Assembly: GCA_964512625.1 (NCBI GenBank)
Contig: CAZEKG010000004.1
Span: 9,223-73,222, forward strand
Direction: 5' to 3'
DNA length: 64,000 bases
From: an uncultured Gammaproteobacteria bacterium
GTDB taxonomy: Bacteria > Patescibacteriota > Patescibacteriia > 2-01-FULL-39-33
Below the pieces are notes generated by a model, which worked only from the letters and a program-made list of their open reading frames with translations, had not been told where the DNA came from and ran no database searches. Below are positions 1 through 36,697 of this stretch, piece by piece (position 1 is the stretch's first letter; each line of letters begins with the position of its first letter). The position numbers and the translations under genes were made by a program.

Positions 1-404
1 ATCAAAAAATCAAGAAAGAAGAGATTACTAATCTAGAGTCCGTCTGCTCAGATGTTTTATCTTTTGAAATAATCCAAGAAAAATATCAAGTTATAATCAT
101 TATTAATACCTTGCAATTCTTGCCACGAGAAAAATGCTTAAAATTAATAACTAACATTAAAAATAAAATAGCATTAAACGGATTTGTTGTCATCAAGGCT
201 TTTACTACCAGTGATTCCAGTTTTATTAGGAACAGGGATAATACTAATAATACCTTCTTCACTCCCAATGAATTGAAAGATTTATTTGATGACTTTAAAG
301 TTCTTCACCATTTCGAATTCATAGCGCTTGATCCTGGTCATGGAGATAAACCAGAACCTCATTTACATGGCATTGTAGAATTAGTTGCTCAAAGAACAAA
401 ATGA
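1..404 (+). CDS. class I SAM-dependent methyltransferase, C-terminal part (TehB-like); 5' end lies outside the window
   Basis: The frame is open from position 3 through the listed ORF at 111..404. The C-terminal region resembles small TehB-type methyltransferases, but no motif I is visible because the N-terminus is missing. Confidence 0.4.
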   Translation, partial: QKIKKEEITNLESVCSDVLSFEIIQEKYQVIIIINTLQFLPREKCLKLITNIKNKIALNGFVVIKAFTTSDSSFIRNRDNTNNTFFTPNELKDLFDDFKVLHHFEFIALDPGHGDKPEPHLHGIVELVAQRTK

Positions 405-440
405 TTTATTATTAGTCACCCACCAAACACGAAATTTTAA

Positions 441-497
441 CATCTCCTCTCGATAAAGTTGGAAGACTTGTCTAAAGTCGTAGAATGTAGCTTTACC
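441..497 (+). repeat. R1 promoter-like repeat, copy 1 (TTGGAA-16 nt-TAGAAT)
   Basis: ~50 bp at ~88% identity to 7527..7581. It contains -35-like TTGGAA, a 16-nt spacer and -10-like TAGAAT. Confidence 0.55.
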
Positions 498-514
498 ACC
501 AAGTAGAAAGTACA

Positions 515-1162
515 ATGAGCTCATACCTATCAATCAAAAAATCAGAGGTAAATAAAGTTCTGTATTCTTTCCTAAAAACAACAAAAAAAGAGTTGGACCT
601 CTTTTTTAATATAAAAAGCCATGAACCATTAATCTTTCTTTTAAATTCCAGAAAAGAATTAGATTTAATTTGGGGAAATAAGACGGAAAAATGGCATGTT
701 GGCGGAACAAGGTGGCTAATAGGGGGTGGGACGAAGCAAGGCGTCATTTTCATCCTTAATCCAGAAGTTTACACTAAAGAATCAAGCCATAAAGATAAGA
801 ACGACTTTTGGAAAACCCTTAAACATGAATATACTCACATCTATTTTAAACAGCTTACGGACGGAGTACTTCCTCTTTGGCTTAATGAAGGAATAGCTTC
901 ATATCTATCCGATCAAAGGCAATCCTGCAAAAACCCTTTAAACATCTTTTCCTATTTTAATAAATCAGATAAAGACATCTATGCTATTGGTTATTTCTGG
1001 GTTGAACTACTAATAAATAAATTCGGGAAAGACAAACTAGTAGGACTGATAAAATCCTTGGAATTAAAACCAAGCTTAACTGAAAAGATATTCAATGAAA
1101 GATTTTATAAAATATACGGTTTTAAATTCAACAAGGCTAATCTTAGTAAGTTAATCGATTAA
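515..1162 (+). CDS. MA-clan (gluzincin-like) zinc metallopeptidase-like protein
   Basis: HEYTH followed ~17 residues later by LWLNEGIA (HExxH...NEG), the signature of thermolysin/M1-like gluzincins. A weak RBS precedes the start, and an R1 promoter-like element lies immediately upstream. Confidence 0.5.
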   Translation: MSSYLSIKKSEVNKVLYSFLKTTKKELDLFFNIKSHEPLIFLLNSRKELDLIWGNKTEKWHVGGTRWLIGGGTKQGVIFILNPEVYTKESSHKDKNDFWKTLKHEYTHIYFKQLTDGVLPLWLNEGIASYLSDQRQSCKNPLNIFSYFNKSDKDIYAIGYFWVELLINKFGKDKLVGLIKSLELKPSLTEKIFNERFYKIYGFKFNKANLSKLID

Positions 1163-1285
1163 GATTAAGAAAATACTTCAAAAAAGAGGCCCGACTTATT
1201 CTTTAAATACATACCAGATAGTATGAAAGATAAAGCAAACTCCATGATTTATAAATCATCTATTGTATAAATAACGTTTATTTCT

Positions 1286-1738
1286 ATGTTCAGAAAAGGA
1301 GTTTCTGCGCTTATCAAAAACAAAAAAGACGAGTTTCTTTTAGTTAATTTAGAATCTTTTGAAGAAAAGTATTTCGCAATTCCAGGCGGCGGAGTTGAGC
1401 AGGGTGAGACACTGGAAGATGCTGTATACCGAGAAATAAAAGAAGAGTTAGGAATTGAAAGGAAGTATCTTGAATTTATAGGCCAAAGCAACATTCCTAT
1501 TAGATTCAAATTTAAGGTAATTAAAATGAATAGAGACGGGGGAAACTACGAAGGTTCGGAGAGATACTTTTTTGGATTTAGATTTATTGGTAATAAAAAA
1601 ATAATAGTTCCAAACCCAGGAGAGGTCCGATCTTACAAATGGATCGCTTATGACGAGTTAAAAAAATATTTACTCTTCGATAATCAGCTGCGGGAAACGT
1701 CAGATAAAATAAAAGAAATATTTCTTAACTTACCGTGA
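1286..1738 (+). CDS. NUDIX hydrolase
   Basis: Nudix box GGGVEQGETLEDAVYREIKEELGIE (GX5EX7REUXEEXGU). Confidence 0.8.
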   Translation: MFRKGVSALIKNKKDEFLLVNLESFEEKYFAIPGGGVEQGETLEDAVYREIKEELGIERKYLEFIGQSNIPIRFKFKVIKMNRDGGNYEGSERYFFGFRFIGNKKIIVPNPGEVRSYKWIAYDELKKYLLFDNQLRETSDKIKEIFLNLP

Positions 1739-1799
1739 TTTTTGTCGTGCGTCTTATGATGGGTCATAATAACTATATAAGGGCATGCTTGAAAAGACT

Positions 1800-1862
1800 A
1801 AAAACTTCCTTTTCTGCTTAGTTTTATGGTATAGTTTTAAGATAAATTAGAATAAAATATGG
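1800..1862 (+). repeat. R2 promoter-like repeat, copy 1 (extended -10 TGgTATAGT)
   Basis: ~60 bp similar to 7748..7809. It ends at the ATG of the 1859 gene. Confidence 0.55.
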
Positions 1863-2368
1863 CAAAAATAAAAATAATTATCTCTTGGGACGGAATAAAA
1901 AGGGAGCTTGAAATGACACTAAAAAATCATCATCACGGCAATTTTAAACGCTGGGGATTAAAGCCTATACTACCGCCACGCAGATCAAGAGAAAGCTATA
2001 TAAATGCTGCTAAAAGATACTATCAAGAATCTGATCGGAAAAACAAAATACAGAGCATTATTCCAGAAATGGAAGCTTGGTGGGATAGAGAAGGTTATTT
2101 ACTTTCAAAAAAAGCCTCCGAAATAACGAGGATTAGTGAACCATCTATTTACTATGTAATTCTAACTCCCTTCGGTCCCGGAGGCGGATATAATAAATTA
2201 GCAAATACTGTTTTTATTAGAATTACCAGTCTCGATAACAGCGATTGGTGGAAAAAAGTAATTATACACGAGGTTGCCCATATATTAAATGGATCAAAAC
2301 TACAAAAAGTTCATAAAGAAAACGAGAGAAAGATTAATGAAATTGTAAGAAAATTACAGACGAAATAG
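1859..2368 (+). CDS. hypothetical small HExxH protein (putative metallo-hydrolase)
   Basis: C-terminal HEVAH motif. The R2 promoter-like element lies immediately upstream. There is no other recognisable domain. Confidence 0.4.
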   Translation: MAKIKIIISWDGIKRELEMTLKNHHHGNFKRWGLKPILPPRRSRESYINAAKRYYQESDRKNKIQSIIPEMEAWWDREGYLLSKKASEITRISEPSIYYVILTPFGPGGGYNKLANTVFIRITSLDNSDWWKKVIIHEVAHILNGSKLQKVHKENERKINEIVRKLQTK

Positions 2369-2460
2369 AAATATGTTAACAAATACAGATAGGATAATAC
2401 AGCTATAAACCAAAAAAACTAGCCTAATTTTAGATATTTTTTTAAGAAAATAATCCGAAA

Positions 2461-3156
2461 CTATTTCTTAATGATAATAATTGCCTCATCCAGTAAATTT
2501 TGAAAATCCTTATTTTTTGACCAAATATTTTTTAATTTCTTTCTTAGCTCTTTATGTTCAGGATATCCGGGATCTTGGCATAATATAATTTTGTTAAACT
2601 CCGGCTCATTCAGTAAAAAAGTTAAAGATTCTTTCAAATCTTCAATCTGGTTATTTTCCAACCCTTTTCTTTTTACGTAGTCTTTGTAGTGATGCAGAAA
2701 CTGCAAGTGCATTATTTCATGGCAAATGGTCGTAATAGAAAAAGAAGTGCTGTGCCACATCGAAGCCATAAACCAGCTTTCTTTTTCGTTATAAGGACAA
2801 ACAAAGCCAGTAGTAAAGTAACAACTGAATTTTTCTTTAAAAATAGGCTTTTTCATGATTAGCTTAAGGGCTTTGAAATACTTTTTTTCAACTAGCCTCC
2901 ATGATTTTTCGAGCGCCTGCATTTCAAAACGCATCACCTTATTTTTGTAATCTTTTTTTGGATTATTTTTAATATAGTCCTCAACTATTTTTTGGGCGCG
3001 AAAAAAACTGGCTTTTTCGATTTTTTCTAAAAGCTCATCCGGAATCTGGGCAATTTGTTCACGCCAATTCAAGCCCCACATATTTTTGTCTTTGGCAATC
3101 AAAACCCAGCTCCAGGCGTCTTTATTGAGATTGTAGTCAAATTTAACTTTTGTCAT
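2461..3156 (-). CDS. hypothetical HExxH protein
   Basis: HEIMHLQFLHH motif in the C-terminal half. A Cys-containing segment precedes it. Family not recognised. Confidence 0.4.
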   Translation of the reverse strand: MTKVKFDYNLNKDAWSWVLIAKDKNMWGLNWREQIAQIPDELLEKIEKASFFRAQKIVEDYIKNNPKKDYKNKVMRFEMQALEKSWRLVEKKYFKALKLIMKKPIFKEKFSCYFTTGFVCPYNEKESWFMASMWHSTSFSITTICHEIMHLQFLHHYKDYVKRKGLENNQIEDLKESLTFLLNEPEFNKIILCQDPGYPEHKELRKKLKNIWSKNKDFQNLLDEAIIIIKK

Positions 3157-3160
3157 GGAT

Positions 3161-3658
3161 TTACTTATTTAATAATCGCCGTATTCTTGCTATTGCCTCT
3201 TTAATAGATGATTCTGTCGATACCAACTTGCCGCCAATCTCTAAGATAAAACTTTTTGCCATGGCGTCACAGTTCAAAAGAATTACTGGTTTTTTAGCTT
3301 TAATTGCCAATGCAACCTCAGAAAGAGTTCCGCTTGAAATCTTACCGCACGCGACAACAACATCACTAGATAATACGTTAATGTTGTTTCTGGCGCTTCC
3401 CATATTTGTTATAATTGGCACATCAACCCAATCAGATGCGAGCCGTGCATTTCTATGAGGAATAATACCAATAGTTAATCCTCCTACAGATTTTGCTCCT
3501 TTATTCACCGCATCCATAATACCTTTATTTCTTCCGCCACTTAAAACTACCCACCCAGATTCAGCAATTGATTTGCCCAATTCAAAAGCAAGGTCACTGT
3601 CTATGTCACGTGCCCCCTCACCCGATCCCATTACTCCAATAATAATCTGCCTGCTCAT
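3161..3658 (-). CDS. TIGR00725 / LOG-like (SLOG) Rossmann-fold nucleotide-binding protein
   Basis: N-terminal IGVMGSG glycine-rich loop, PVILLN and a GGxxT-like core, typical of the YgdH/LOG lysine-decarboxylase-like family. It is tightly coupled to the upstream HD gene. Confidence 0.65.
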   Translation of the reverse strand: MSRQIIIGVMGSGEGARDIDSDLAFELGKSIAESGWVVLSGGRNKGIMDAVNKGAKSVGGLTIGIIPHRNARLASDWVDVPIITNMGSARNNINVLSSDVVVACGKISSGTLSEVALAIKAKKPVILLNCDAMAKSFILEIGGKLVSTESSIKEAIARIRRLLNK

Positions 3659-3661
3659 AGG

Positions 3662-4222
3662 TTAAAAATTTAATAATTTATTACTCTGTCTTGGCTCATC
3701 AAACCAGATACGGGCACTGATGGTGTCGCAACAGTGAACAAATGCGGCAAGAGGATTCATTATTCGTTTGGTATCGTGATAATCATTCTTTTCTCCTTCT
3801 ACATACTTAAGAGCATTTGATTGATCTCTTGTAAGTGAAATTTTTAATCGTTTCGCAATAATTATTGCTGACTGATATTTTGGATTACCTGCAAGAGCCG
3901 CGGGTATTGGCCGACCTCGCCCGTCTATGGTCATATTATATATTTTTTCCAAATCATGAAAGAAGAGAACATAAAGCGCATCTGAAAGCGTAAAAAGAAG
4001 CTGTCGCTGATTATTGAGCGTTTCATAAAGTAAGCAAGCAATCGACATAGTTTCTACTAAATGGCCGACATATCCTCCCTTCCAATTCTGATGCTTATGA
4101 AGACCCCCTGGAGCGCTTTGAAATCGCTCGCCCTCATTTTTTATGATAGCCAAAACATGCCTGCGATCGCTTAGCTTGATTTTTTTGACTAAAGTATTTA
4201 GCTGTTCTAAGTGATTTACCAT
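3662..4222 (-). CDS. HD-domain phosphohydrolase
   Basis: H...HD signature (GHLVETMS ... LFFHDLEKI). The start was moved to the internal Met (MVNHLEQ) preceded by an extended -10 (TGcTAAAAT). The longer ORF to 4303 is also possible. Confidence 0.5.
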   Translation of the reverse strand: MVNHLEQLNTLVKKIKLSDRRHVLAIIKNEGERFQSAPGGLHKHQNWKGGYVGHLVETMSIACLLYETLNNQRQLLFTLSDALYVLFFHDLEKIYNMTIDGRGRPIPAALAGNPKYQSAIIIAKRLKISLTRDQSNALKYVEGEKNDYHDTKRIMNPLAAFVHCCDTISARIWFDEPRQSNKLLNF

Positions 4223-4329
4223 GAATTTATAATATAATATTTTAGCATATAAAAACAAATATCCCATAAAAAACCTCGCCCCGAGATAGCTTGACCCTGT
4301 CATAGTTTATTAGTAATATAAACAAAGAG

Positions 4330-4839
4330 ATGCTTAGCTCCCATGTCTTCAAAAATCGTAAAATAAAAATAGAACTAAATAATAACACTCATAACACATT
4401 TATGTCAACCCCAAAAAACGCTGTTTCAGCTGGAGGAGTTATTGTAAAAAAAGAAAATGAATCATTTTTTATTCTTCTCTTAAGAGATACCCGTTTCCCT
4501 GAATGGTATTTTGCAAAAGGCCATGTCGAGCCAGGTGAAACCCTAGAACAAGCAGCCATGCGCGAGGTGGCCGAAGAAGCGGGATTACATCATCTTAAAA
4601 TTTATTCTTTACTTGGTTCATATGAACGTTTTGTCGAAAAGGCTAACGAACAAAAAACCATTCATTACTTCCTAATGTCACCAACACGAGAAGAGACGCC
4701 TTCGGAACCGGAAAATAAAAATGTGGAATTAAAATGGTTTCCGCTAGAGGAGTTGCCGGTTATGTATTTGCCAGAGCAAAAAGATGTCGTTGAAAAAAAT
4801 TTAGAGAAGATAAAAAACTCCCTAAGTGCGAATACTTAG
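4330..4839 (+). CDS. NUDIX hydrolase
   Basis: Nudix box GHVEPGETLEQAAMREVAEEAGL. An alternative start is at 4402. Confidence 0.75.
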   Translation: MLSSHVFKNRKIKIELNNNTHNTFMSTPKNAVSAGGVIVKKENESFFILLLRDTRFPEWYFAKGHVEPGETLEQAAMREVAEEAGLHHLKIYSLLGSYERFVEKANEQKTIHYFLMSPTREETPSEPENKNVELKWFPLEELPVMYLPEQKDVVEKNLEKIKNSLSANT

Positions 4840-4861
4840 GGAGCGGGAAACGATTAAACAG

Positions 4862-5788
4862 TTATGGTGCGATGTGATGATGCATGTCCGTAAGAGATAT
4901 GATTCCGTCTCCAAGATCACGACCTACGACTTCAACAAGTGTGCCAGCAGGAGTCACTGGATCTCTCAACCAGTGATGAGACCAAACTTGATAGATTTGA
5001 CCAGATGGCTTTTGTACGACATATTTTCTTGGAAAAAGCCACGCAGCAGCACTATCAATAACGTGAGCATTCATTCGAATCTCAGGTGCCAGATATGAAT
5101 CATCATCATAAAGCCTAGCCGGAATTTTATCTCGTTCATCTTCGCCATACGTGAAAATGAACGAGATTTTTTGTCCCTGGTAGTACACTTTCGTCAAATC
5201 GCCTGCAAATACTGAATGAAGATACCCCTGATCGAGGCCATACATTTTCGCATAACGCTCTGCGTAAGACGAGACTACCTTCTTCGTCATAAGCTCCAGC
5301 TCCCTATTGAGCAAGGCATCTTCAATAGCCCGCCTGCACGAATGTGCGGATGAACTATTAAAAATAAGCAAGTCAATATCGAAGTCTAGTGCCTCACAAC
5401 CAAGACTAACCGACCCGCCAAGTCCACACTGATGACTCGCAATTCCGGCCGCCTGCAAAATACCCTTAACAATGCCGACGCGCGAATCAGAGCTTGTAAG
5501 CCAATTCTCAAATACCTGATGTGAGTCTATGCGACCAACAATGTGTTCGGCCGGAATCATTACCGACCATGGATCAATCTGAGCACATCTGATATATGGT
5601 TGCTTAGGAAGTAGGTCTGATCTTTGGTGGCGTAAAAACTTGTCATAACGCCTGCCAGAATACACCCGCTCACCGGCTTCGCTGGGAAAATACATCGGTC
5701 TTCCAAATAGATTACCCCTCTTCGAATACAGAGATCCGATCGAGTAAATCCATCCGGAAACCGTAACAACGGGACACAAAAGATTCAT
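4862..5788 (-). CDS. Pol-beta superfamily nucleotidyltransferase (GS...DxDxD)
   Basis: GLGGSVSLGCEALDFDIDLLIF matches the hG[GS]x9-13Dh[DE]h minimal-NTase motif, and acidic clusters lie downstream (YGEDERD, YDDD). The gene is G+C-rich relative to its flanks. Its start abuts the stop of the upstream gene. Confidence 0.5.
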   Translation of the reverse strand: MNLLCPVVTVSGWIYSIGSLYSKRGNLFGRPMYFPSEAGERVYSGRRYDKFLRHQRSDLLPKQPYIRCAQIDPWSVMIPAEHIVGRIDSHQVFENWLTSSDSRVGIVKGILQAAGIASHQCGLGGSVSLGCEALDFDIDLLIFNSSSAHSCRRAIEDALLNRELELMTKKVVSSYAERYAKMYGLDQGYLHSVFAGDLTKVYYQGQKISFIFTYGEDERDKIPARLYDDDSYLAPEIRMNAHVIDSAAAWLFPRKYVVQKPSGQIYQVWSHHWLRDPVTPAGTLVEVVGRDLGDGIISLTDMHHHIAP

Positions 5789-5790
5789 TG

Positions 5791-6762
5791 TTAGATCTCC
5801 TTTCTTAGAATCTCTTTAATTTGTTCATGGAGATTATCTGGTGAAACATCTTGGTTATTTGTAATGGCATAACCACAAAGACTCACCAGACCGCCCAAAT
5901 CATTCTGCTCATACGTCGGCCACAAACCATCGCGATGAGCATCAAGTTCTATCAACCATCCTTGATCGGCCGATTTTTCAATCTCACGACCACGGATTTT
6001 CGCTCGAGTATGTCGCAAAGCATTAGTTGACTGGAGATGAATAAAAATCACTCTTCCATAACAAGAAAGCAACTCCGCTTCAGACCATCGCAGAAGACTG
6101 CCTAAGAATATTTGCCGCTGAGTCTGGGCAGTCACCCCGCGTTGTTGCAAGACAAGCTGCAACGGTTCATCCTCCCAATTCTCTCTTAATGGAAGAGCCG
6201 CAAGCTTGGCGGGACAATCCTCTTTAATACGATCAAGCTCTCGATATAACTCAAGCACCTCATCACCTTCTTTTTCAAAAATACTAAGAACACTTGACTT
6301 ACCAGAACCCTTAAGACCGATAATCCCAATAAAGAGATTTGATCCCTGCGGCGACAGTGCGTAACGCTGGCCGTGAAAAATACGAAAAGCCCTCGAATAA
6401 ATTCTTTGGCATAATCTATTCTTCATAAAAATGGCGGATTCATCCAACCCGCCAATCAGGCCTGTAATGTACGCTTCCGCTTTTAGATATCCAGCAGAAT
6501 TTAATTCCACAATAACTTGAGCGAGTTTTGAAGAAATGCATTCGCTTACTGGATTCTCATACCATCTCCAAGTCCCAGTGTCTCCATAAATTCTATCGAG
6601 TACGTGGCGTAGCTCGTTTTGAGTTGAGACATCATGAGTGATAGACTCGTCCGCCAAGAGAAGGGTCGATAGGGCAAGTGTCGATTCTTCCCGCAATAAT
6701 TCCAAGTATGATCCACTATAAACCTCGCGAAGAAAAGATCCCAAACCAGTTTCAGAAAACAT
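5791..6762 (-). CDS. P-loop NTPase / nucleotide-kinase-like protein with an uncharacterised ~170-aa N-terminal domain
   Basis: Walker A GIIGLKGSGKSS resembles CoaE/uridine-kinase-type small kinases. The start was chosen at the Met adjacent to the PRTase stop. The longer ORF to 6840 would overlap the PRTase gene by 77 nt. Confidence 0.45.
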   Translation of the reverse strand: MFSETGLGSFLREVYSGSYLELLREESTLALSTLLLADESITHDVSTQNELRHVLDRIYGDTGTWRWYENPVSECISSKLAQVIVELNSAGYLKAEAYITGLIGGLDESAIFMKNRLCQRIYSRAFRIFHGQRYALSPQGSNLFIGIIGLKGSGKSSVLSIFEKEGDEVLELYRELDRIKEDCPAKLAALPLRENWEDEPLQLVLQQRGVTAQTQRQIFLGSLLRWSEAELLSCYGRVIFIHLQSTNALRHTRAKIRGREIEKSADQGWLIELDAHRDGLWPTYEQNDLGGLVSLCGYAITNNQDVSPDNLHEQIKEILRKEI

Positions 6763-6763
6763 G

Positions 6764-7393
6764 TCAACCTCCAATCCACTCCTTGAAAGTAGTTGTCCCA
6801 TATAACAATTGATATGAGAGTATGGCCTGGCGCTCATCAATACTTAAGTAAGGGATGATATCCCTAAGCCGAGATATGGAAATCAAGTCCAAACCATTCT
6901 GAGCCTTAATGCGGTCCGCGGTACTCAAACCATCTTCACCCACATCCTCACGATCAAAAATGCGAACAATGGTTTTAGGATGATGTCCGAATGGGCTTAT
7001 CATATCTAAAACCTTTACGACAGTTTCACCCGTAGTAACCGCATTATCTATCAAAATCGTAGTTTCTTCATTATCAGCAACTTCAATGCTCTGCTCCATT
7101 TTACGAGGATATATAATTGAGAGCTTAACACGCCTACCCAACCTTAATCCATGTTCATAAATAGCTTCCGCCAAAGGAATCCCACTATTCGCAATTCCAA
7201 TAAAATGGGCCGCTTCCAATGATGAGAATTTATTGATTCTCCATGTTGCCGCGGCCATGACCTGAAAAACATCCCCTAGAAGAGTTTTTGGTAGGCGCAC
7301 AGTATAAGGAGACACTCGACCGTTTTTGAAAGTAACTTCATTAAACTGGTATAGTCCGTAATGAAGCAAGTAAGAAGCCTGATTCGAGTTCAT
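6764..7393 (-). CDS. type I phosphoribosyltransferase (PRTase)
   Basis: PRPP-binding motif TILIDNAVTTGETV. The RBS GGAGA lies 6 nt before the ATG of MNSNQ. The gene is G+C-rich. Confidence 0.65.
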   Translation of the reverse strand: MNSNQASYLLHYGLYQFNEVTFKNGRVSPYTVRLPKTLLGDVFQVMAAATWRINKFSSLEAAHFIGIANSGIPLAEAIYEHGLRLGRRVKLSIIYPRKMEQSIEVADNEETTILIDNAVTTGETVVKVLDMISPFGHHPKTIVRIFDREDVGEDGLSTADRIKAQNGLDLISISRLRDIIPYLSIDERQAILSYQLLYGTTTFKEWIGG

Positions 7394-7526
7394 GTACTTT
7401 CTCCTTTCCAGTTGAAAGTCAAACAAGTAATTGTGAAATGTACGAAACTTTTTGTAATGAACGTTATAATGAGCACTTCACTACCACTAAAAACCATATA
7501 ATAAAATGGATATTTTGTCAAGCCAA

Positions 7527-7581
7527 AAATCTCCCCGATAACGTTGGAAGATTTGTCTAAAGTCGTAGAATATGACTTTAC
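7527..7581 (+). repeat. R1 promoter-like repeat, copy 2
   Basis: Same architecture as copy 1. It is upstream of the small Cys-rich ORF. Confidence 0.55.
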
Positions 7582-7666
7582 AAATCCCGAATTCCAACGA
7601 GTAATCAAGCTGCTCTTAAACAGAGGGTTCATCTCTCTATAACTAGGAAGAAAGGAGACGGGCGCC

Positions 7667-7792
7667 ATGTTCGAAGAAATGCACGCTTATGCAGTGAACG
7701 GCCAAAGCTGCGATAGCGCAGATGCCAGTGGCTGTGACTGCTATCAGCGCCCTTCCCCTTCTTATGTGTTTTATGGTATAATTTTAGAGTAA
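7667..7792 (+). CDS. 41-aa Cys-rich small peptide (MFEEMHAYAVNGQSCDSADASGCDCYQRPSPSYVFYGIILE)
   Basis: Strong RBS AAAGGAG 8 nt upstream of the ATG. The R1 promoter-like element is ~90 nt upstream. Four Cys residues. Not in the ORF track because it is shorter than 60 aa. Confidence 0.35.
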   Translation: MFEEMHAYAVNGQSCDSADASGCDCYQRPSPSYVFYGIILE

Positions 7793-7809
7793 ATTAGAAT
7801 AAAATATGG
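7748..7809 (+). repeat. R2 promoter-like repeat, copy 2 (extended -10 TGgTATAAT)
   Basis: Contains gttttatggtataattttagagtaaattagaataaaatATGgc, which ends at the plsC start. Confidence 0.55.
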
Positions 7810-8435
7810 CTTATTGGTTAATAAAAAAACTGCTTTCCCCATTAGTTAAGGCCGTTTGGGTTGAAAAAGTAGAAGGAATAGAAAACATCCCTAGAACCGG
7901 GTCAGCTATTTTAGCATTTAATCATTGTAGTTATATGGACTTTATTACTTTTGGAGCTGTATCGCCCAGATTAGTTTTCTATCTGGCTGGTGAGGTTTTT
8001 TTTAAAAAATGGTGGTGGAGACCACTGGTTATATTAACTGGACAAGTAAAGGTTGATCGTCAAAGCAAAGATAAATCCAATTCTATAAAACAAGCTCTCT
8101 CAATACTTAAACAGCAAAAATTATTAGGCATATTCCCTGAAGGAACAAGATCAGCTAATGGCAAGCTCCAAAAAGCCTATTCTGGAGTAGCTAAAATAGC
8201 TATAGCTAGCCAAGTAAACATTATACCGGTTGGCCTTATCGGAACTTATGAAATTATGTCACGTCATAATAAGTTTCCCAAATTAAATAAAAAATGCCGT
8301 ATAATAATTGGAAATCCCATAGACCTGTCAGAATACTACGGCCAAGAATATAATCAAGAAATTATAGATATGATAACTAATAAAAAAATAATGCCAGAAA
8401 TAGCTAGGCTTAGTGGACAAGATTACACCTATTAA
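7806..8435 (+). CDS. plsC: 1-acyl-sn-glycerol-3-phosphate acyltransferase
   Basis: HX4D motif NHCSYMD and FPEGTRS motif. Confidence 0.75.
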   Translation: MAYWLIKKLLSPLVKAVWVEKVEGIENIPRTGSAILAFNHCSYMDFITFGAVSPRLVFYLAGEVFFKKWWWRPLVILTGQVKVDRQSKDKSNSIKQALSILKQQKLLGIFPEGTRSANGKLQKAYSGVAKIAIASQVNIIPVGLIGTYEIMSRHNKFPKLNKKCRIIIGNPIDLSEYYGQEYNQEIIDMITNKKIMPEIARLSGQDYTY

Positions 8436-8508
8436 ATTCTAATAGATAATTACTTTATTTTTTCATCTATTTCGTGTTATAATTAAGTCAAGATGACTTA
8501 ATTTTTTT

Positions 8509-9168
8509 ATGGCTGGAATAGTGTTTTTTGATCTGGACGGGACAATGGTCTGTGGACAAACACAGCAAATGTTAATAAAATACTTATTTCATAAAAATAG
8601 GCTCAACTTTTTTTACCTATTAATCTCACTCTTATGGTTTGCACTATATAAAATAAGAGTCGTTAGGAATGTTGAAAAAATTATGTCCCAATCCTATAAA
8701 ATAATAAAAGGATGGGATTATGAAGACACTCAAATTCTAATAAAAGATTTTTTCGATACAGAAATAAAAAAAAAGATATATCCTCAAGCAATAGCTATTA
8801 TAAAAAAATATCAATTAGATGGCAAAGACATTGTAATAATATCAAATACACCACAAATAATAGTAAATGAGATTATAAAATATTTCAACTTAAGTCATGG
8901 CTATGGAACTAGATTAGAAATTATCAATAATAAATTTACTGGAAAAATATCTGGCCATGCTGTTTATGGAATAGAAAAGGTTAACCTTATAAAGAGAGAA
9001 ATGCCACACATAGATTTTAATAAAAAAAATACCATTTCCTATTCAGATCATTACTCAGATATTCCTTTATTAAAACTTACTTCGAAAAGTTTTGTAGTAA
9101 ACCCAGATAAAAAACTAAAGATTGCTGCCATTAAAAATAAATGGCAATTAGTCAACTTCTTTATATGA
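8509..9168 (+). CDS. HAD-IB family hydrolase
   Basis: FFDLDGT motif I, the size of a HAD-IB (phosphoserine-phosphatase-like) member. It has an ATGA overlap with the next gene. Confidence 0.6.
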   Translation: MAGIVFFDLDGTMVCGQTQQMLIKYLFHKNRLNFFYLLISLLWFALYKIRVVRNVEKIMSQSYKIIKGWDYEDTQILIKDFFDTEIKKKIYPQAIAIIKKYQLDGKDIVIISNTPQIIVNEIIKYFNLSHGYGTRLEIINNKFTGKISGHAVYGIEKVNLIKREMPHIDFNKKNTISYSDHYSDIPLLKLTSKSFVVNPDKKLKIAAIKNKWQLVNFFI

Positions 9169-11366
9169 GCATCTTCGCCATATCATGCCTAGCTGTAGCA
9201 ATACTTTCTATAGTATTGGGTGGTTTAGTTTATATTAGAAATAAGTCAGGAAAAATAAATCGTTCCTGGTTTTTTGTTACATTTTCTATTTTTTGCTGGT
9301 CACTTAGTTTTTGGGGGGTAGTTACAGCCAAAGATCAAAACATAGCTTTATTTTGGCAAAGAATTCTAGATATTTCTGGAATATTCATACCTATAACATT
9401 TCTTGATTTTGTCTTAGTTCTTTTGGATGAAAATAAATCACAAAGATATAAAGTTAAAATATACTTAATATATTTGATTGGTATAATCTTTTCGGTAATT
9501 AGTCTATTTCCTATTTTTAAAATAGGAATGAAACAAGTCTTTAATTTTCCTTACTGGATAAATCCTGGCCCATTATATTTTATATTTCCAGGAATGTTTT
9601 TTACTTTAGTGATTTATTTTTCATACCTTCTTTTTAAAAACTACTTTAAACTAACTGGGTTAAAAAAAATACAGATAGGTTATGTGCTTCTAGCTAGTAT
9701 AGTAGGTTTCGGCGGAGGAATAACAGATTTTTTCCCTCAGTTAATACAGATATATCCAGTGGGACACTATTTTGTAGCCTTTTATGTTGTTTTTATAAGC
9801 TACGCGATTAGTCGCTATCGTCTAATGGAAATAAAAACGATCATTAAAAGATCATCCGTTTTCGCATTACTTGTAATGCTAATAGGTGCTACATTCGTAT
9901 TATTATCATCTTTAATAAGCAACATGATTGCTATCTTATTTAATGAGACATCAAATACATTGACAGCCTTATTTGTAGCTATAATCATAACTCTGATATT
10001 TCAGCCTCTTAAAAACTTCTTAGAGAAGATAACCGATAAATTCTTATTTACTAAGGGATATAATCCATCATTAATTATATCTAGAATAACAGACCTAAAC
10101 TCTTCAATCACTAATTTAGATTTGCTACTATCATCAACTTCTGAGGTTTTAAATGACACCTTTTATTATTCAAAAATAGCTATTATCCTATTAGATGAAA
10201 AAAAGAAGTTAAAAATTGAATACCAAAAAGGCTTAGATATTAAAAATGTTTCTCAGTTTATTAGGGGCAAAGAAAGAGATCTAAAAAGAAATTTTTCTGA
10301 GACTAGAAATATTAAAGTTATCGACGAATTAAGATCTAGTTACGAGGCTGGGGAATATAAGCCGCAAAATATTAAACTTATATACCAACTATACGATTTA
10401 GATATTGCTTTAGTTATTCCCCTTTTTGTTAAGGATAAATTAACTGGTATTATCGCACTTGGAAACAAAAAATCGGGTGACCCATACAATAATCAAGACC
10501 TCCAACTCCTAAGTATTATTGCCGGACAATCAGCTGTATCAATAGAAAATGCCAAATTGTATGATGAATTGCAAGACTTCAACGTAAAACTCCAAAAAGA
10601 AGTTAAAAAAGCCACAGCCAAATTAGAAGTTGCCAACAAAGAACTGCAACGACTCGATCAATCAAAATCAGAATTCCTTTCCATCGCCTCCCATCAACTC
10701 CGAACGCCCTTAACCGTAATTAAAGGCTACTCTTCAATGATTCTCGAGGGCAGCTTCGGCCGAGTCCCGAAACTGATTAAGGAAAATATGGATAAGGTCT
10801 TTAGTTCAACCGAACGCCTTATTGCCCTCGTCGAAAACCTTTTAAATGTTTCCAGGATCGAAGCCGGCCGCATTCAGTTTGATCTTGAGCCAGTCGACCT
10901 TGAAAGCGTAGTTAAAGTCTTTATCGATGATTTCACCCCTAAAGCTGAAGCTAAAAAAATCAAACTCTCCTTCTACCCTGAAAAGAAATTGCCTAAAGTT
11001 CTTGCCGATCCTCAAAAGATTAAAGATGTCATTTCTAATCTACTTGATAATTCCATTAAATACACTCCGACAGGAGAAATTACCGTCTCCCTACATCTAG
11101 AAAGCCAATCGGTCGTCTTTGCCTGCCAGGATACAGGCATGGGCATCGATCCAAACGACTTGCCTCGATTATTCAATAAATTCGTAAGGGGTACTGATAT
11201 GAATAAAGTCCAAACCGACGGAACGGGATTAGGTCTTTATTACGCTAGGATGATTGTAGAGAATATGGGCGGCCGAATATGGGCGGAAAGCAACGGCAAA
11301 GGCAAAGGCAGCAAGTTCTGCTTCTCCCTTAACCTAGCCAATAAAGGCGAGGCGAAAAAAATGTAG
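9141..11366 (+). CDS. membrane-bound sensor histidine kinase (multi-TM sensor, GAF-like, HisKA, HATPase_c)
   Basis: H-box ASHQLRTPLTVIKGY. N/G boxes DNSIKYT ... DTGMGI ... GTGLGLYYARMIVENMGGRIWAES. The N-terminus is hydrophobic with ~7 TM segments. Confidence 0.8.
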   Translation: MAISQLLYMSIFAISCLAVAILSIVLGGLVYIRNKSGKINRSWFFVTFSIFCWSLSFWGVVTAKDQNIALFWQRILDISGIFIPITFLDFVLVLLDENKSQRYKVKIYLIYLIGIIFSVISLFPIFKIGMKQVFNFPYWINPGPLYFIFPGMFFTLVIYFSYLLFKNYFKLTGLKKIQIGYVLLASIVGFGGGITDFFPQLIQIYPVGHYFVAFYVVFISYAISRYRLMEIKTIIKRSSVFALLVMLIGATFVLLSSLISNMIAILFNETSNTLTALFVAIIITLIFQPLKNFLEKITDKFLFTKGYNPSLIISRITDLNSSITNLDLLLSSTSEVLNDTFYYSKIAIILLDEKKKLKIEYQKGLDIKNVSQFIRGKERDLKRNFSETRNIKVIDELRSSYEAGEYKPQNIKLIYQLYDLDIALVIPLFVKDKLTGIIALGNKKSGDPYNNQDLQLLSIIAGQSAVSIENAKLYDELQDFNVKLQKEVKKATAKLEVANKELQRLDQSKSEFLSIASHQLRTPLTVIKGYSSMILEGSFGRVPKLIKENMDKVFSSTERLIALVENLLNVSRIEAGRIQFDLEPVDLESVVKVFIDDFTPKAEAKKIKLSFYPEKKLPKVLADPQKIKDVISNLLDNSIKYTPTGEITVSLHLESQSVVFACQDTGMGIDPNDLPRLFNKFVRGTDMNKVQTDGTGLGLYYARMIVENMGGRIWAESNGKGKGSKFCFSLNLANKGEAKKM

Positions 11367-12333: not shown

Positions 12334-12981
12334 ATGGAAATCGATGGCTACATCAAGGGTTTTATGGGTCCAGTTCAACTGGAATGCCCGTTTGGTATCG
12401 CCTTATGGGCAAACAAAGCTCCTGGAAAGGGGTTTATTATGCATTCGGCATTGTCAGAAATATGCACTCATAAAAAACCATCCATTGTTGTTGATGACTA
12501 TCTTCCGATGGCAATATTTCACCGTTCTGTTGAAAAGCAGACAGAGATAAATGGTTTGTATTTTGAGGCATTATCCGAAAAGTGCTCGGAAATCAGCTTG
12601 ATGAGTGGTATTGTAAATCAGGCTGAGTATTTTAACAGAGTCATTGCAATGTTGGACAAGATAACGTTTTTGGGATTCGTAAGATGTTTGCCACAAAAAA
12701 AACTCGTCAGTGGCCTGGGGAGTATTGTTATGAGCGAAGTTTTGCATGCAGCTGCGGAATTATTTGTTTTCGAGCACATGAAATCAATGGGCTTGAAGAC
12801 AATAATCATCCCCCAATTCGCTCAGGCCATAATGTCCTTGCACCGCAATATCTCGGCTAATCCGCTAAGCGCTATTGTAACGTCCAATTTTGCAACCGAA
12901 ACAGACTTTGAGCGGCAAAGCCAGGAGTTATGGAGCTTGGCTGATCAGTTACTCGTCGCAATAAAAAGTCAAACCCAATAG
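12334..12981 (+). CDS. hypothetical protein (first gene of the tyrS operon)
   Basis: The RBS is tAGGAGaaagagagATG. No recognisable domain. G+C-richer than its surroundings. Confidence 0.5.
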   Translation: MEIDGYIKGFMGPVQLECPFGIALWANKAPGKGFIMHSALSEICTHKKPSIVVDDYLPMAIFHRSVEKQTEINGLYFEALSEKCSEISLMSGIVNQAEYFNRVIAMLDKITFLGFVRCLPQKKLVSGLGSIVMSEVLHAAAELFVFEHMKSMGLKTIIIPQFAQAIMSLHRNISANPLSAIVTSNFATETDFERQSQELWSLADQLLVAIKSQTQ

Positions 12982-13010
12982 AAGAGGAGAACGGAAAGGA
13001 GTAAGTAGTA

Positions 13011-13967
13011 ATGTATTTATTGTTGTCGTTTCTATCCACTAACTACAGTCAGTTAAACGATCACTGGCAAAAACATTCGGTTCTGAAGAAAGAAGGTAAG
13101 CGCGGTAGCGATAAGCCTTTTATCAAAGAGCTGGGTGGTTGTCTAGAAGTCATTGATTGGTCAACTAAACAAACTGTTTGGTCAATGCCTTTCAATAGTC
13201 CGGCCGGCACCTACCGGTTTTCGTCTGACTTACTAATGGTCAACTCTCTGCGGCAGGGAGCTATCAGTTTTGTTTCTCTGTCCAATAAGGCCGTAGTCGC
13301 AACTATCGGCAACGTTGCCTTCAATAAACCTCATTCGCTCATCAAAACAACCAGTGGTTTTATGGTTGCAAGCACGGGAGTTGACGCAATAGTGGAGGTG
13401 GATGGCAATGGCTCAATGCTCTATTCGTTCTTCTTCACAGAACACGGATACGAACTTGACCAACTCGGCACCAAACGATCGATTGATTTCAGTGCCAATC
13501 ATCAAGGCGTTGAATATCCTTCCTTGCACCAAACGACCCATGTAAACTATGCAAGGTATGTCGACGCTACCGAGACAAGAATCGTTGCCACATTGTTTCA
13601 TCCCGGTGAGCTGGTAATCATTGACAAAGAGTCCGGCGAAATAAAAATCATCTTGGATGGATTGAAAAATCCGCACAATCTGAAACCGGCTCTAGACAGA
13701 CAAGTCCTCTGTAATACATCGGCCAACGCCGTAATAGTAATGAACGGCGACTTCGAGATCATTGATCAGTTCGGCGACGGCCTGGGTATGTCTTGGGTAC
13801 AAGATGCCATATACTGTGAAGCAAGTGGTACCTTTATTGTGGCTGATGCGGATAATCATCGTTTGCTTGAACTCGACTGGAACGGAAGACCTGTCGACGA
13901 TTACTCGTTTTCACAGGACAACCGTATTTACGAAGTTTGTGAATTCAATGGAAATGTCAAGCCATAA
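13011..13967 (+). CDS. beta-propeller (NHL/SMP-30-like repeat) protein
   Basis: AAAGGAG RBS. Repeated FIVADADNHRLLELD-type NHL-like motifs. Confidence 0.45.
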   Translation: MYLLLSFLSTNYSQLNDHWQKHSVLKKEGKRGSDKPFIKELGGCLEVIDWSTKQTVWSMPFNSPAGTYRFSSDLLMVNSLRQGAISFVSLSNKAVVATIGNVAFNKPHSLIKTTSGFMVASTGVDAIVEVDGNGSMLYSFFFTEHGYELDQLGTKRSIDFSANHQGVEYPSLHQTTHVNYARYVDATETRIVATLFHPGELVIIDKESGEIKIILDGLKNPHNLKPALDRQVLCNTSANAVIVMNGDFEIIDQFGDGLGMSWVQDAIYCEASGTFIVADADNHRLLELDWNGRPVDDYSFSQDNRIYEVCEFNGNVKP

Positions 13968-13981
13968 GGAGGGGGCTGGCT

Positions 13982-14770
13982 ATGAAAACCAGAATTTTGA
14001 CGTTTACTGATTGCTCTGATGTCGCCAGTAATGAACTGCGAGCGACACTGACCCGCATGATTGATGATCTCGACATGGATAGCAACATCATTGTTGAGCC
14101 TTTTGTCAACTGCAAGGAGTTCTCCGTCGTCAACTGCGCCTTCATGGTGCGTTTATTGGCGGAAAGCTATGACCCAAAAAAAACAATCTTCCTGATTATA
14201 GCCAATGCCTTGCCCACCGCACGATCCAATCGTGCGAGATTGGTTGGACGAACGAAAAACGGAATCCGTTTTGTGGCGGAGAACACAGGGACACTTTCTT
14301 GGCTATTGGATGACTTCGGCCTCAAAGAGTTATATGAATATTCATCCAAAGGCCTTGACGGTCAGACTTTTGTATCCTTCGGAGGAAAGTACTTTCACGC
14401 TCCTGAAGCGGTCAAAATTGCCAGCATGGCCGAGTTTAACGGTTATGATGTCAAGTTTGACCCTGCCAGATTGACGAGAGTAGCTATTCCCGAGGGGAGC
14501 GTCGTTCACATCGATAATTTCGGCGTGGCCAAAATCAAAATGGTCCTACCGGCTGATTTGAAAGACGGTGAACAGCTGCGGTTGGCAATAAACGGACAAG
14601 AATGGAACACGGTACTATACTCCCATGCCATGAAAAATCTACCTGATGGCACGTGGACTATTTACAAAGGCAGCTCAATGGGATTGGCAGAGATTGGTTG
14701 TGTACGCAGAGTCGTTACCGACTCCGGCTACTTTGGAATTGGTGATGTTATAAGTATGAAAAGGAGCTGA
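13982..14770 (+). CDS. SAM hydroxide adenosyltransferase family protein (DUF62; SalL/FlA chlorinase/fluorinase family)
   Basis: N-terminal ILTFTDCSD (LTDFG-like). Central GSVVHIDNFGVAKI (G.VV.ID.FGN). C-terminal GSSMGLAEIG...GDVISM. The RBS is GGAGGGGG. Confidence 0.6.
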   Translation: MKTRILTFTDCSDVASNELRATLTRMIDDLDMDSNIIVEPFVNCKEFSVVNCAFMVRLLAESYDPKKTIFLIIANALPTARSNRARLVGRTKNGIRFVAENTGTLSWLLDDFGLKELYEYSSKGLDGQTFVSFGGKYFHAPEAVKIASMAEFNGYDVKFDPARLTRVAIPEGSVVHIDNFGVAKIKMVLPADLKDGEQLRLAINGQEWNTVLYSHAMKNLPDGTWTIYKGSSMGLAEIGCVRRVVTDSGYFGIGDVISMKRS

Positions 14771-14772
14771 CA

Positions 14773-15963
14773 ATGAACAGTAACGGCAAGAAAGCACCTG
14801 TCCAGGCCATCCTTGGTCGCGGACATATCCAGGAAGTTATATCCGATCAAGACATATCCGAATTGCTGAGCGGACCACCCCTCAGAGTAAAGTGGGGAAC
14901 TGATCCGACCAGCAAAAACATCCACCTTGGGAGATCGATACCCATCATGCTTCTGCGCGATTTGCAGCAGCTCGGGCATCAGATTGTTGTGATTATTGGC
15001 AATTTCACAGCCGAGATCGGCGACACAAGCGACAAAGATTGTGAACGGCCAGCCATTTCAACCGAGGCGGTGATACAGAACATGCAGACCTACATCCAGC
15101 AAATCGGCCAGATCCTTGATTTGGATAAGACCGAATTCCATTTCAACAAAGACTGGTGGGGCCAGATGGACTTCAGCCGCTTTGTTCGCATTACGGACTT
15201 GTTTTCCTTGGCAGAATTTTCGGCGAGAAACAATATCGCCAAACGTCTGCGGGAAGGAAAACGGGTATCCATCCGGGAGATGATCTATCCCATCATGCAG
15301 GGCTACGACTCCCTTCACTTAGATGCAGACATTGAGATAGGCGGCACCGACCAAAAGTTCAACATGCTGGCCGGACGAACAATCCAACGCGCTCACGGAA
15401 AGAAAGCCCAATCCCTGATCATGACGACACTGATTGAAGGACTAGACGGGCGCAAGATGAGTTCCTCCTGGGGCAACACGATTAACCTGACGGACAGTCC
15501 CGATGACATGCTCGGCAAACTTATGAGCATGAAGGACGAGATGATCATTCCTTACTATATCCATTTGACCCGCGTACCGCGCGAAGTCATTGATGAGTTC
15601 ACGAGGAAGATGTCCGCCAACGAAGTCAACCCTCGCGATGTCAAGCTGGAACTGGCCGTTGCAATCGTCTCCGATCTCTACAGTTCTGATCTGGCGGAGA
15701 AAGCTGCTGCCGAATTCAAGAAAGTTTTCCAGCAACGAGAGTTGCCGGAAGACATGCCCTCTTTCCAAGTCAAGAACACCAACATTGTTGATGTCTTGCT
15801 GGAAATCGGGTTCGCCGGTTCGCGCAGCGCAGCAAGACGGTTGATAGAGCAAGGTGGCGTGCGCATAGACGACGCCAAAGTCTCCGAATTATCGTCTGAA
15901 ATTCCCAACCAATGCGTAATTCGAAAGGGAAAGCTGCACTTTGCGAAAGTCGAAAAGGTGTAG
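14773..15963 (+). CDS. tyrS: tyrosine--tRNA ligase
   Basis: DPTSKNIHLG (HIGH-type), LQQLGHQIVVIIGNFTAEIGDTS, GGTDQ, KMSSS (KMSKS-type) and a C-terminal S4 domain (RRLIEQGGVRIDDAKV). Confidence 0.8.
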   Translation: MNSNGKKAPVQAILGRGHIQEVISDQDISELLSGPPLRVKWGTDPTSKNIHLGRSIPIMLLRDLQQLGHQIVVIIGNFTAEIGDTSDKDCERPAISTEAVIQNMQTYIQQIGQILDLDKTEFHFNKDWWGQMDFSRFVRITDLFSLAEFSARNNIAKRLREGKRVSIREMIYPIMQGYDSLHLDADIEIGGTDQKFNMLAGRTIQRAHGKKAQSLIMTTLIEGLDGRKMSSSWGNTINLTDSPDDMLGKLMSMKDEMIIPYYIHLTRVPREVIDEFTRKMSANEVNPRDVKLELAVAIVSDLYSSDLAEKAAAEFKKVFQQRELPEDMPSFQVKNTNIVDVLLEIGFAGSRSAARRLIEQGGVRIDDAKVSELSSEIPNQCVIRKGKLHFAKVEKV

Positions 15964-35756: not shown

Positions 35757-35790
35757 ATTTTTTTTATTTAATTTCACTAAATTTAATTTT

Positions 35791-36255: not shown

Positions 36256-36272
36256 ATTAAATAAATTGCTAA

Positions 36273-36689: not shown

Positions 36690-36697
36690 AAATCTAA

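Follow-up and report, generated by a model that had tools for sequence, protein, structure and literature searches.

Two short promoter-like repeats, each present twice and probably reused before unrelated genes, in a gene-shuffling interval of a candidate-phyla-radiation-type genome

Two different short sequences, R1 and R2, occur in exactly two copies each in the 64-kb window (the whole stretch of DNA analysed, 64,000 nt) of a small uncultivated bacterium, against about zero expected by chance; they are probably core-promoter modules, about 58 nt long and unrelated to each other, both of which local recombination has placed before a further gene unrelated to the first. The repeats had been described in an earlier note, and alignment together with shuffles bears out two copies of each in essentially the same places. 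Copies were counted with core patterns, allowing up to three mismatches, across the 64-kb window; dinucleotide shuffles gave on average 0.00–0.16 matches per core pattern, and none reached two. A repeat scan of the whole window returned no other dispersed non-coding repeats of more than 80% identity, and no Rfam covariance model matched in the window at the gathering threshold (at E ≤ 1 there was nothing in 7400–7860, and in 380–1900 two chance-level matches only).

R1a (439–497, plus strand) lies upstream of pepMA (515–1162, plus strand), which encodes an MA-superfamily peptidase (Pfam PF13485), and R1b (7526–7581, plus strand) is situated in the divergent intergenic region between a PRTase operon on the minus strand and a Cys-rich ORF on the plus strand. 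A gapped alignment of both copies has 50 identical columns out of 58, with six mismatches and two gaps; the ungapped core of 46 nt (451–496 and 7536–7581) is 89% identical, the best 36 nt 94%. TTGGAA-16-TAGAAT, the motif previously reported, is present in both (459–486 and 7544–7571), with the −35 box at 459–464 and the −10 box at 481–486 in R1a, the latter ending 28 nt 5′ of the pepMA ATG, and with the boxes at 7544–7549 and 7566–7571 in R1b. Most of R1b is held within an imperfect palindrome of 58 nt (7542–7599, no strand), the outer arms of which are CGTTGGAA and TTCCAACG and the inner part of which is a 10-3-10 dyad, TAAAGTCGTA-GAA-TATGACTTTA, with the −10 box at its centre. Folded as DNA, this palindrome reaches −16.6 kcal/mol (z = −6.6; 0/200 shuffles were as good) and ranks fifth among the 70-nt hairpins of the window, ranks 1–3 of which resemble canonical terminators. 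No hairpin is found at R1a (DNA fold z = −0.5); the palindromic element is whole at R1b and truncated in the R1a copy. The history of R1 is argued from this palindrome. R1 was absent from every relative fetched, and in IMG/VR and the JGI metagenomes its 19-mer core turned up only by chance, between flanks of no relation.

R2a (1805–1863, plus strand) lies upstream of gene D (1859–2368, plus strand), which encodes a 169-aa HExxH protein of no known family, and R2b (7752–7810, plus strand) upstream of a plsC-type acyltransferase gene (7806–8435, plus strand), the first gene of a conserved PlsC-HAD-histidine kinase anchor. Both copies are identical at 49/59 positions without gaps and at 51/60 with gaps. 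They carry the extended −10 motifs noted before, TGGTATAGT at 1827–1835 in R2a and TGGTATAAT at 7774–7782 in R2b, the latter 23 nt before the ATG; a second −10-like hexamer, TAGAAT, follows at 1848–1853 and 7795–7800, and ATGGC forms the end (1859–1863 and 7806–7810, all on the plus strand). The repeat thus extends from promoter position −37 through the extended −10 and a leader of about 17 nt, which has no Shine-Dalgarno (SD) site, to coding position +5. The earlier placement of all four repeats directly upstream of a start holds in so far as all positions are promoter-like; R1b, however, is 86 nt away from the ATG at 7667, and R2 reaches 5 nt into the coding sequences. R2 has no significant inverted repeat, and its 21-mer had no match in IMG/VR. 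A core of R2 (27/28 nt) was found upstream of an asparaginase gene in another species (locus L016), and GTTTTATGGTATAAT was found again in loci L021–L024 (sites 2165, 4734 and 7481, each about 60–80 nt 5′ of a called gene start).

A scan for the generic promoter consensus gave 35 matches versus 29.7 ± 5.1 in shuffles, which is no enrichment, so the hexamers alone prove nothing. SD sites are missing from nearly all genes in the window, and at about seven other genes TGnTAtAAT is located some 10–34 nt 5′ of an ATG that has no SD site; R2 conforms to this layout, and R1a has its −10 box at the 28 nt given above. Taking hexamers or an extended −10 together with proper spacing and distance to the gene, both R1 and R2 have the form of sigma-70-type promoters, and RNA polymerase would be expected to initiate there; by its layout, which is the usual one for this genome, R2 looks like a complete core promoter.

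The genes downstream of the paired repeats are not paralogues: gene D compared to PlsC gives a BLASTP E value of 4.6, the peptidase and the Cys-rich ORF do not match at all, and DNA similarity behind the R2 copies ends at +5. Besides its own, just two 90%-identity clusters contain homologues of gene D, which are some 53% identical to it. In the window, gene D is followed by an operon without SD sites on the minus strand (2461–4222), encoding G (186 aa, no family), an SLOG/LDcluster4 (TIGR00725-like) protein and the HExxH protein E, by NUDIX2 (4402–4839, plus strand), and by a GC-richer segment (4862–7751, minus strand; 41–46% GC), the genes of which have SD sites and encode a 308-aa orphan, a P-loop-like protein (start at about 6762) and a PRTase-like protein (6764–7393). 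R1b and the Cys-rich ORF, both on the plus strand, lie inside this segment, which stops at the left edge of R2b; the repeats do not delimit one compositionally distinct insert; an inserted segment between them had been suggested as one possibility. Sequence searches of the PDB with three orphan proteins found nothing, and PADLOC, run on the island genes, returned no more than weak domain-level matches, with no known defence system.

Comparison of the R2 edges between strains relies on one sister-strain contig of 1 kb (L020), which covers the R2 upstream of gene D. Its order is peptidase, intact terminator, R2, gene D; NUDIX1 is absent. In the window, the strain-specific NUDIX1 segment (1192–1804, plus strand; CDS 1286–1738 with a NUDIX domain) takes the place of 20 sister-strain nucleotides, to which half of the pepMA terminator (the right one) belongs, the other half being left at about 1180–1191, and its right end coincides exactly with the left edge of R2a. 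The "cargo of peptidase plus NUDIX" envisaged earlier is no original unit: NUDIX1 was inserted in this strain specifically, and the peptidase terminator was destroyed by it. R2 of L020 is identical to R2b at 57 of 59 positions and to R2a at 51 of 59; all eight differences to R2a fall into the 5′ 38 nt of R2a, as against 97.8% identity in the neighbouring gene D (Fisher p = 2e-4). The three versions of R2 share one left edge and have three different upstream flanks. Because NUDIX1 is present here and absent from L020, and because the Cys-rich gene is truncated, the left edges of R2 are identified as recombination breakpoints, and the recombination scar once suspected at this locus stands for the R2 edges at least.

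Neighbouring genes, too, change place between near-identical strains: the NUDIX2 CDS, 95.5% identical in a sister strain (L025), is located there between histidine kinase and AP_endonuc_2 genes, and the interval from a conserved TehB-type methyltransferase gene to the PlsC-HAD-kinase genes differs in content in every relative examined (L003, L013, L016, L021, L026 and L028). No relative near enough for comparing the whole interval at nucleotide level was found: the nearest PlsC is 64% identical, and identity to the peptidase does not exceed 65% in any homologue. Nor was an empty site, with a single R1-R2 pair and no DNA between 1.9 and 7.7 kb, found among the relatives fetched.

The Cys-rich ORF (7667–7792, plus strand; 41 aa, SD AAAGGAG) lacks the C-terminal CVSCDSCDCD(T)SE conserved in its homologues in relatives, and its last 13 codons plus the stop codon are R2b sequence. 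It is 71% identical in DNA to an ORF of L016, which has the same 13-nt SD region. The homologues adjoin radical-SAM/SPASM and HExxH genes; in L026, a peptidase homologue is followed by a 69-aa Cys-rich ORF and then by a radical-SAM/SPASM gene. The exact 41-aa peptide has no match in the protein collection, and NCBIfam holds no family for the Cys-rich peptides or for the HExxH partners in relatives. What the earlier note had taken for the cargo of the second module is 3′-truncated, a homologue of a conserved small gene; an annotation trap is corrected thereby, the ORF being no intact peptide gene but a decapitated relative of the small gene beside radical-SAM/SPASM genes.

The preferred reading, that of promoter reuse, starts from the duplications, their exact edges, the breakpoints at the left edges of R2, the incompleteness of R1a and the changed places of neighbouring genes in near-identical strains, all of which the sequences show. 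Reuse would have taken place inside a hypervariable gene-shuffling interval, which reaches from the conserved TehB-type methyltransferase to the conserved PlsC-HAD-histidine kinase genes. R2 would now head gene D and plsC, and its TAGAAT 5 nt before the ATG might provide an alternative, leaderless start; R1 would be a −35/−10 promoter, for which the 58-nt dyad of R1b, centred on the −10 box, is a possible operator. Truncated R1a would now head the MA-type peptidase gene, and full R1b the remnant of the Cys-rich gene. We infer homologous or microhomology-mediated recombination, with no dedicated recombinase, as the origin of the copies, and infer likewise the order of events at the locus. It may be noted with regard to promoter reuse that, given the interleaved, co-oriented order and the mere 170 nt between R1b and R2b, one event would be more natural than two. 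Since the repeat edges, those of R2 at least, are breakpoints, the locus has the look of a gene-shuffling hot spot with ordinary reuse of promoters and no new kind of element; if nothing beyond such reuse is involved, the case is tidy but ordinary.

Putative mobile promoters (PMPs) are described as sequences that precede non-paralogous genes of the same genome and are 80% or more identical over 50 nt or more, sampled by the authors in a window from −150 to −50; they occur mostly in pairs, with a mean identity of about 92%, some families cross species and no mobile element is associated with them (Matus-Garcia, Nijveen & van Passel 2012; PMC3575422). R1 and R2 resemble PMPs in reaching this identity, in their pairing, in their non-paralogous neighbours and in the lack of a mobile element, and the R2 core, as mentioned, also occurs in L016. 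With respect to the sampling window, R1b (−141 to −86) lies inside and R1a (−76 to −18) partly inside, whereas R2 (−54 to +5), the putative core promoter with −10 box and start codon, lies nearly completely outside. Further differences are that strain comparison here identifies the edges as breakpoints and that the host has a candidate-phyla-radiation-type genome with genes mostly devoid of SD sites. In horizontal regulatory switching, reportedly described by Oren et al. in PNAS in 2014, whole intergenic regions are swapped through homologous recombination within the genes on either side. Similar to this, the promoter was apparently replaced independently of its flanking genes, the R2a allele differing by 14% and gene D by 2%; different from it, the unit is a sharp-edged module of 59 nt, and the NUDIX1 gene came along.

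An unlikely, though still serious, alternative to promoter reuse is a one-step duplication, in which DNA of the form R1-x-R2, circular or on a sister chromosome, recombined with a resident R1-y-R2 by a Campbell-type single crossover or by unequal crossing-over, leaving direct copies of this scaffold around the D-to-PRTase block; it corresponds to the duplicated module or scar of the earlier note. The four copies are indeed co-oriented and strictly interleaved (R1..R2......R1.R2), both pairs lie within 7.4 kb with no further such repeats in 64 kb, and divergence within the pairs does not differ significantly when the sister-strain R2 is used (6/58 versus 2/59); moreover, the peptidase and the Cys-rich ORF are neighbours in L026, so both "cargos" are members of one gene set. 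However, the two scaffold interiors share no similarity beyond R1 and R2, and the boundaries in composition and SD usage (4862–7751) are off the repeats, with R1b, the Cys-rich gene and the PRTase operon in one foreign-like piece. The missing empty site speaks against this duplication as well, and the truncation of R1a and the gene cut at R2b would call for further events anyway.

It is rather improbable that the copies are alike through selection for a shared regulator, with no common descent. Candidate operators would be the R1b dyad, the 10-3-10 core of which has the −10 box at its centre, or a TAATTT-N5/6-AAATTA dyad in R2, which, as read from the sequences, also exists in the R2-like site of L016; the peptidase would then be co-regulated with the Cys peptide, a pairing in line with their linkage in L026, and gene D with plsC. 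The similarity, however, is uniform over 56–59 nt and breaks off sharply on either side, which argues for copied DNA and not for a binding site of 15–20 nt. The dyad is also lost from R1a, and co-regulating the Cys-rich gene has no obvious purpose because that gene is truncated. As a statement on function, shared regulation is compatible with common descent, and co-regulation via R1 and R2, as put forward earlier, is possible.

We offer as a long shot that R1 and R2 are "docking" modules of a recombinase-free cassette exchange in candidate-phyla-radiation bacteria. Sharp-edged core-promoter modules, common to strains and even species, would serve as homology patches for swapping cargos (the NUDIX genes, the peptidase gene and the Cys-peptide gene), each of which would land right behind a working promoter; the palindrome at R1b would belong to this exchange system as a site of regulation or recombination. 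If true, this would functionally be an integron without integrase. The attC consensus of integrons has the order RYYYAAC...GTTRRRY and forms an imperfect palindrome. Reminiscent of integrons are gene-sized NUDIX1 and NUDIX2, which are differently placed in near-identical strains, and the bulged, imperfect R1b palindrome between genes. In contrast to integrons, there is no attC array, and R1 and R2 come with promoters, which most integron cassettes lack. R1b as an attC site was rejected, as its palindrome has the attC order reversed, no integron integrase was detected among the genes scanned (about 1–20.8 kb) and the hairpin is single.

Very little credence is given to R2a/R2b (5947 bp apart) or R1a/R1b (7085 bp apart) being attL/attR of an integrated mobile island, or to the repeats being copies of a miniature transposable element. 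They are direct repeats around a partly GC-richer block, and R1b has a palindrome, as do some recombination sites; however, no integrase, transposase or recombinase domain was detected (Pfam for about 1–20.8 kb, NCBIfam and PADLOC also for the island genes), the copies are only 83–90% identical, where att sites have identical core repeats, often at a tRNA gene, and of two interleaved pairs no more than one could be att sites. The outer arms of R1b, GTTGGAA...TTCCAAC, are the reverse of the attC order, and plasmid or phage similarity of 1–8000 amounts to weak gene-level matches only (TIGR00725, Nudix genes). R2 has neither terminal inverted repeats nor a target duplication, no target-site duplication flanking R1b was seen in the sequence, and the R1 core, as stated, has nothing but chance matches in IMG/VR and the JGI metagenomes. 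An origin from a tRNA or att site was rejected, the sole tRNA of the window being located at 53 kb. Correia elements, ERIC and REPIN are described as promoter-bearing miniature repeats (PMC3575422). R1 and R2 share with these a short, intergenic nature and the ability to supply promoters, and R1b is palindromic; those elements, however, have terminal inverted repeats and tens to hundreds of copies, compared to two copies each of R1 and R2 in 64 kb. Mis-joining of the contig at short repeats, which its metagenome-assembled source and mosaic GC content might suggest, was rejected as scarcely credible, because the copies differ by 10–17%, with longest exact shared runs of 19 and 21 nt, and are thus too diverged to collapse or mis-join, and because R2a-D-E and peptidase-R2-D are confirmed independently, in other sequencing runs, by the Logan contigs L019 and L020.

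How newly acquired genes are expressed in the tiny, mostly RBS-less genomes of the candidate phyla radiation is barely understood. The locus offers a concrete, strain-resolved case in which modules of promoter plus start codon appear to have been copied before different genes, with the junctions exactly at the module edges, and in which gene-sized neighbouring pieces move between strains of 95–98% identity. R1 and R2 are, further, candidate native promoters for a lineage without genetic tools.

Reading of positions 1-9000, together with a repeat finder, bears out the earlier note in its claim that two unrelated pairs of promoter-like direct repeats are present. The copies of R1, 439-497 (R1a) and 7526-7581 (R1b), align with 50 identical positions, 6 mismatches and 2 gaps of one base each, and their ungapped core (451-496/7536-7581) is 89% identical; those of R2, 1805-1863 (R2a) and 7752-7810 (R2b), are identical at 49 of 59 positions without gaps. 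Allowing up to three mismatches, the core patterns match at these sites only within the 64-kb window, and essentially never in dinucleotide shuffles. No further dispersed non-coding repeat above 80% identity emerged from a scan of the whole window, and apart from R1 and R2 the region 7400-8500 has no resemblance to 1-2500.

The source is a small genome with a mean GC content of ~38%. A TehB-type methyltransferase (to 404) is followed by R1a, an MA-type peptidase, NUDIX1 (1286-1738), R2a and D, a 169-aa HExxH gene; then come, on the minus strand, E (another HExxH protein), a SLOG/TIGR00725-like protein and G (186 aa, no family), NUDIX2 (4402-4839) on the plus strand, a 308-aa orphan, a P-loop-like and a PRTase-like protein, again on the minus strand, and finally R1b, a Cys-rich ORF, R2b and the PlsC-HAD-histidine kinase genes. 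In the protein collection PlsC itself occurs on a single 73.6-kb NCBI contig. Its nearest homologues are 58-64% identical, the named ones being of Parcubacteria type (Buchananbacteria and others). PlsC-HAD-kinase is conserved in three relatives' loci (L003, L013 and L016), and what lies upstream of plsC is different in every relative fetched; in L016 a TehB methyltransferase is found 1.7 kb upstream, with two unrelated genes between.

Both copies of R2 terminate in ATGGC and so reach five bases into the coding sequences of D (1859) and plsC (7806), whose proteins are unrelated. R2b carries TGGTATAAT at 7774-7782, 23 nt upstream of the ATG; the counterpart of this -10 sequence in R2a is TGGTATAGT. 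A second -10-like box, TAGAAT, is situated 5 nt before the ATG in both copies, so that a leaderless start might be an alternative. Transcripts are predicted to begin near 1842 and 7789 with a leader, or near 1859 and 7806 without one. TGnTAtAAT ending ~10-34 nt before the ATG is seen at about seven other genes of the window, and Shine-Dalgarno (SD) sequences are missing from nearly all window genes; the R2-type layout is the norm here. As the left edge of R2 lies at about -37 relative to the extended -10 box, the module would consist of exactly a core promoter, a leader and a start codon. A generic promoter scan showed no enrichment over shuffles; the case for a promoter is one of position and genome-specific layout, not of hexamers.

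Outside the window, the R2 core recurs (27/28 nt) upstream of an asparaginase gene in L016, and GTTTTATGGTATAAT occurs three times in L021-L024, each time with a called gene start ~60-80 nt further on, which suggests that the centre of R2 is a lineage-wide promoter form; the full 59-nt module appears to be private to this lineage. In the form TTTATGGTATAATTTTARNTAAATTAG, R2 may represent a cross-species promoter family. The R1 core is missing from all fetched loci, and in IMG/VR and the JGI metagenomes it had nothing beyond chance matches.

The sister-strain sequence that touches a repeat amounts to ~1 kb. It is a Logan contig, L020, with a 97% identical relative of D, and reads peptidase 3′ end (95.5% identical), intact terminator AAAAAAGAGGCcttcGCCTCTTTTTT, R2, D. 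Window positions 1192-1804, with NUDIX1, take the place of 20 nt of L020 that include the right half of the terminator. Since the terminator is intact in L020 and halved in the window, NUDIX1 was inserted later, and its right junction coincides with the left edge of R2a. The R2 of L020 matches R2b, the copy before plsC, at 57/59 positions and R2a at only 51/59, while the D beside it is 97.8% identical to that of the window (Fisher p = 2e-4); the 5′ two-thirds of R2a therefore derive from a third, diverged R2 allele, which presumably arrived with NUDIX1. The three versions of R2 have three different upstream flanks and one common left edge. NUDIX2 (4402-4825) is 95.5% identical to 2021-2444 of another sister-strain contig, L025, where it is placed between the histidine kinase gene and the AP_endonuc_2 gene, and the match is limited to the coding sequence. 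The histidine kinase gene also looks mosaic: nothing in L025 matches its 5′ half (9141-10400, 28% GC) at the nucleotide level, and its 3′ half is 90% identical.

At the downstream copy, the 41-aa Cys peptide which the earlier note took for the cargo of a duplicated module turns out to be a truncated gene. L016 has a 46-aa ORF (…CFDCDCGDGGGDGGCVSCDSCDCDSE) flanked by a radical-SAM/SPASM gene and an E relative; the window ORF has 71% nucleotide identity to it and shares an identical 13-nt SD stretch, GGAAGAAAGGAGA. It is without their conserved C-terminus, CVSCDSCDCD(T)SE, and the alignment stops where R2b starts, so that the left edge of R2b is a breakpoint too. A similar Cys-rich ORF precedes an E relative and plsC in L021, and in L026 a 69-aa Cys-rich ORF and a radical-SAM/SPASM gene come after a peptidase homologue. 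Within its coding part (7681-7750) the window ORF can pair strongly with itself (-17.1 kcal/mol as DNA) and ranks fourth among the 70-nt hairpins of the window, probably as a by-product of repeated TGC/GAT/GGC codons.

SD sequences are almost confined to 4862-7792 (the genes of the 308-aa orphan, the P-loop protein, which starts at ~6762, and the PRTase, along with the Cys ORF) and 12334-15963 (including tyrosyl-tRNA synthetase, 51% GC); both are GC-richer stretches, and the remaining ~50 genes are without a canonical SD, which suggests that the two blocks were acquired from SD-using donors. The first, foreign-like piece contains R1b and has its right end at R2b, and is therefore not bracketed by the repeats.

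As to R1, TTGGAA-16-TAGAAT is present at 459-486 and 7544-7571, with predicted transcription starts near 493 and 7578. The earlier note overlooked that R1b forms most of a 58-nt imperfect palindrome (7542-7599) with outer arms CGTTGGAA / TTCCAACG and an inner 10-3-10 dyad centred on the -10 box. Folded as DNA it reaches -16.6 kcal/mol (z = -6.6; 0/200 shuffles as good) and comes fifth in strength among the 70-nt hairpins of the window; the three strongest resemble canonical terminators, and the palindrome has neither a T-run nor an Rfam match. What remains in R1a is 17 nt of left flank, then the left arm and the loop and ~10 nt of the right arm, and no fold results (z = -0.5); R1a is therefore a truncated version of the element found in full at R1b.

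The best-supported reading, which we hold with some reserve, is that promoters were reused through local recombination within a hot spot of gene shuffling. Only those rearrangements that left a promoter whole would survive, and for this reason the module edges would coincide with the functional limits of the promoter. The closest described phenomenon is that of "putative mobile promoters", with which R1 and R2 agree in identity, length and non-paralogy (PMC3575422). Duplication of an [R1-x-R2] scaffold in a single event would be the more economical explanation of the interleaved order; this model nevertheless requires extra steps and is at odds with the composition boundary, and we consider it rather improbable. 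Regulator sites alike purely by convergence, att sites or a MITE, and mis-assembly are each unlikely. No integrase or transposase domain was found in the genes scanned (~1-20.8 kb), nor was any known defence system or any plasmid or phage similarity.

Several other features deserve mention. In relatives, a recurring set combines a small Cys/Asp-rich ORF with a radical-SAM/SPASM enzyme and an HExxH protein (L016 5423-7624; L021 1226-2095; L026 5402-8786), often with a TehB-type methyltransferase or MA-type peptidase; NCBIfam has no family for its small ORFs or HExxH proteins, and in L021-L024 the gene callers picked another frame over the Cys-rich one. Judging from gene neighbourhood only, the set may make a modified peptide. 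The minus-strand operon 4862-7393 encodes the PRTase-like protein, the P-loop-like protein (323-349 aa) and the 308-aa orphan, none with a Pfam match above threshold or a sequence relative in the PDB; by eye, a GGS...DFDID motif in the orphan recalls Pol-beta-type nucleotidyltransferases. The adjoining G-SLOG-HExxH operon (2461-4222) is likewise uncharacterised. A tandem array of five paralogous genes (124-154 aa; 61-73% identical in DNA) occupies 35376-37358 on the minus strand. At the right end of the window, in an AT-rich stretch, five copies of the perfect 22-nt palindrome AAATGTTTCACGTGAAACATTT (63429-63978; spacings 249, 83, 93 and 93 nt) may be an array of operators or else mark an origin-like region.
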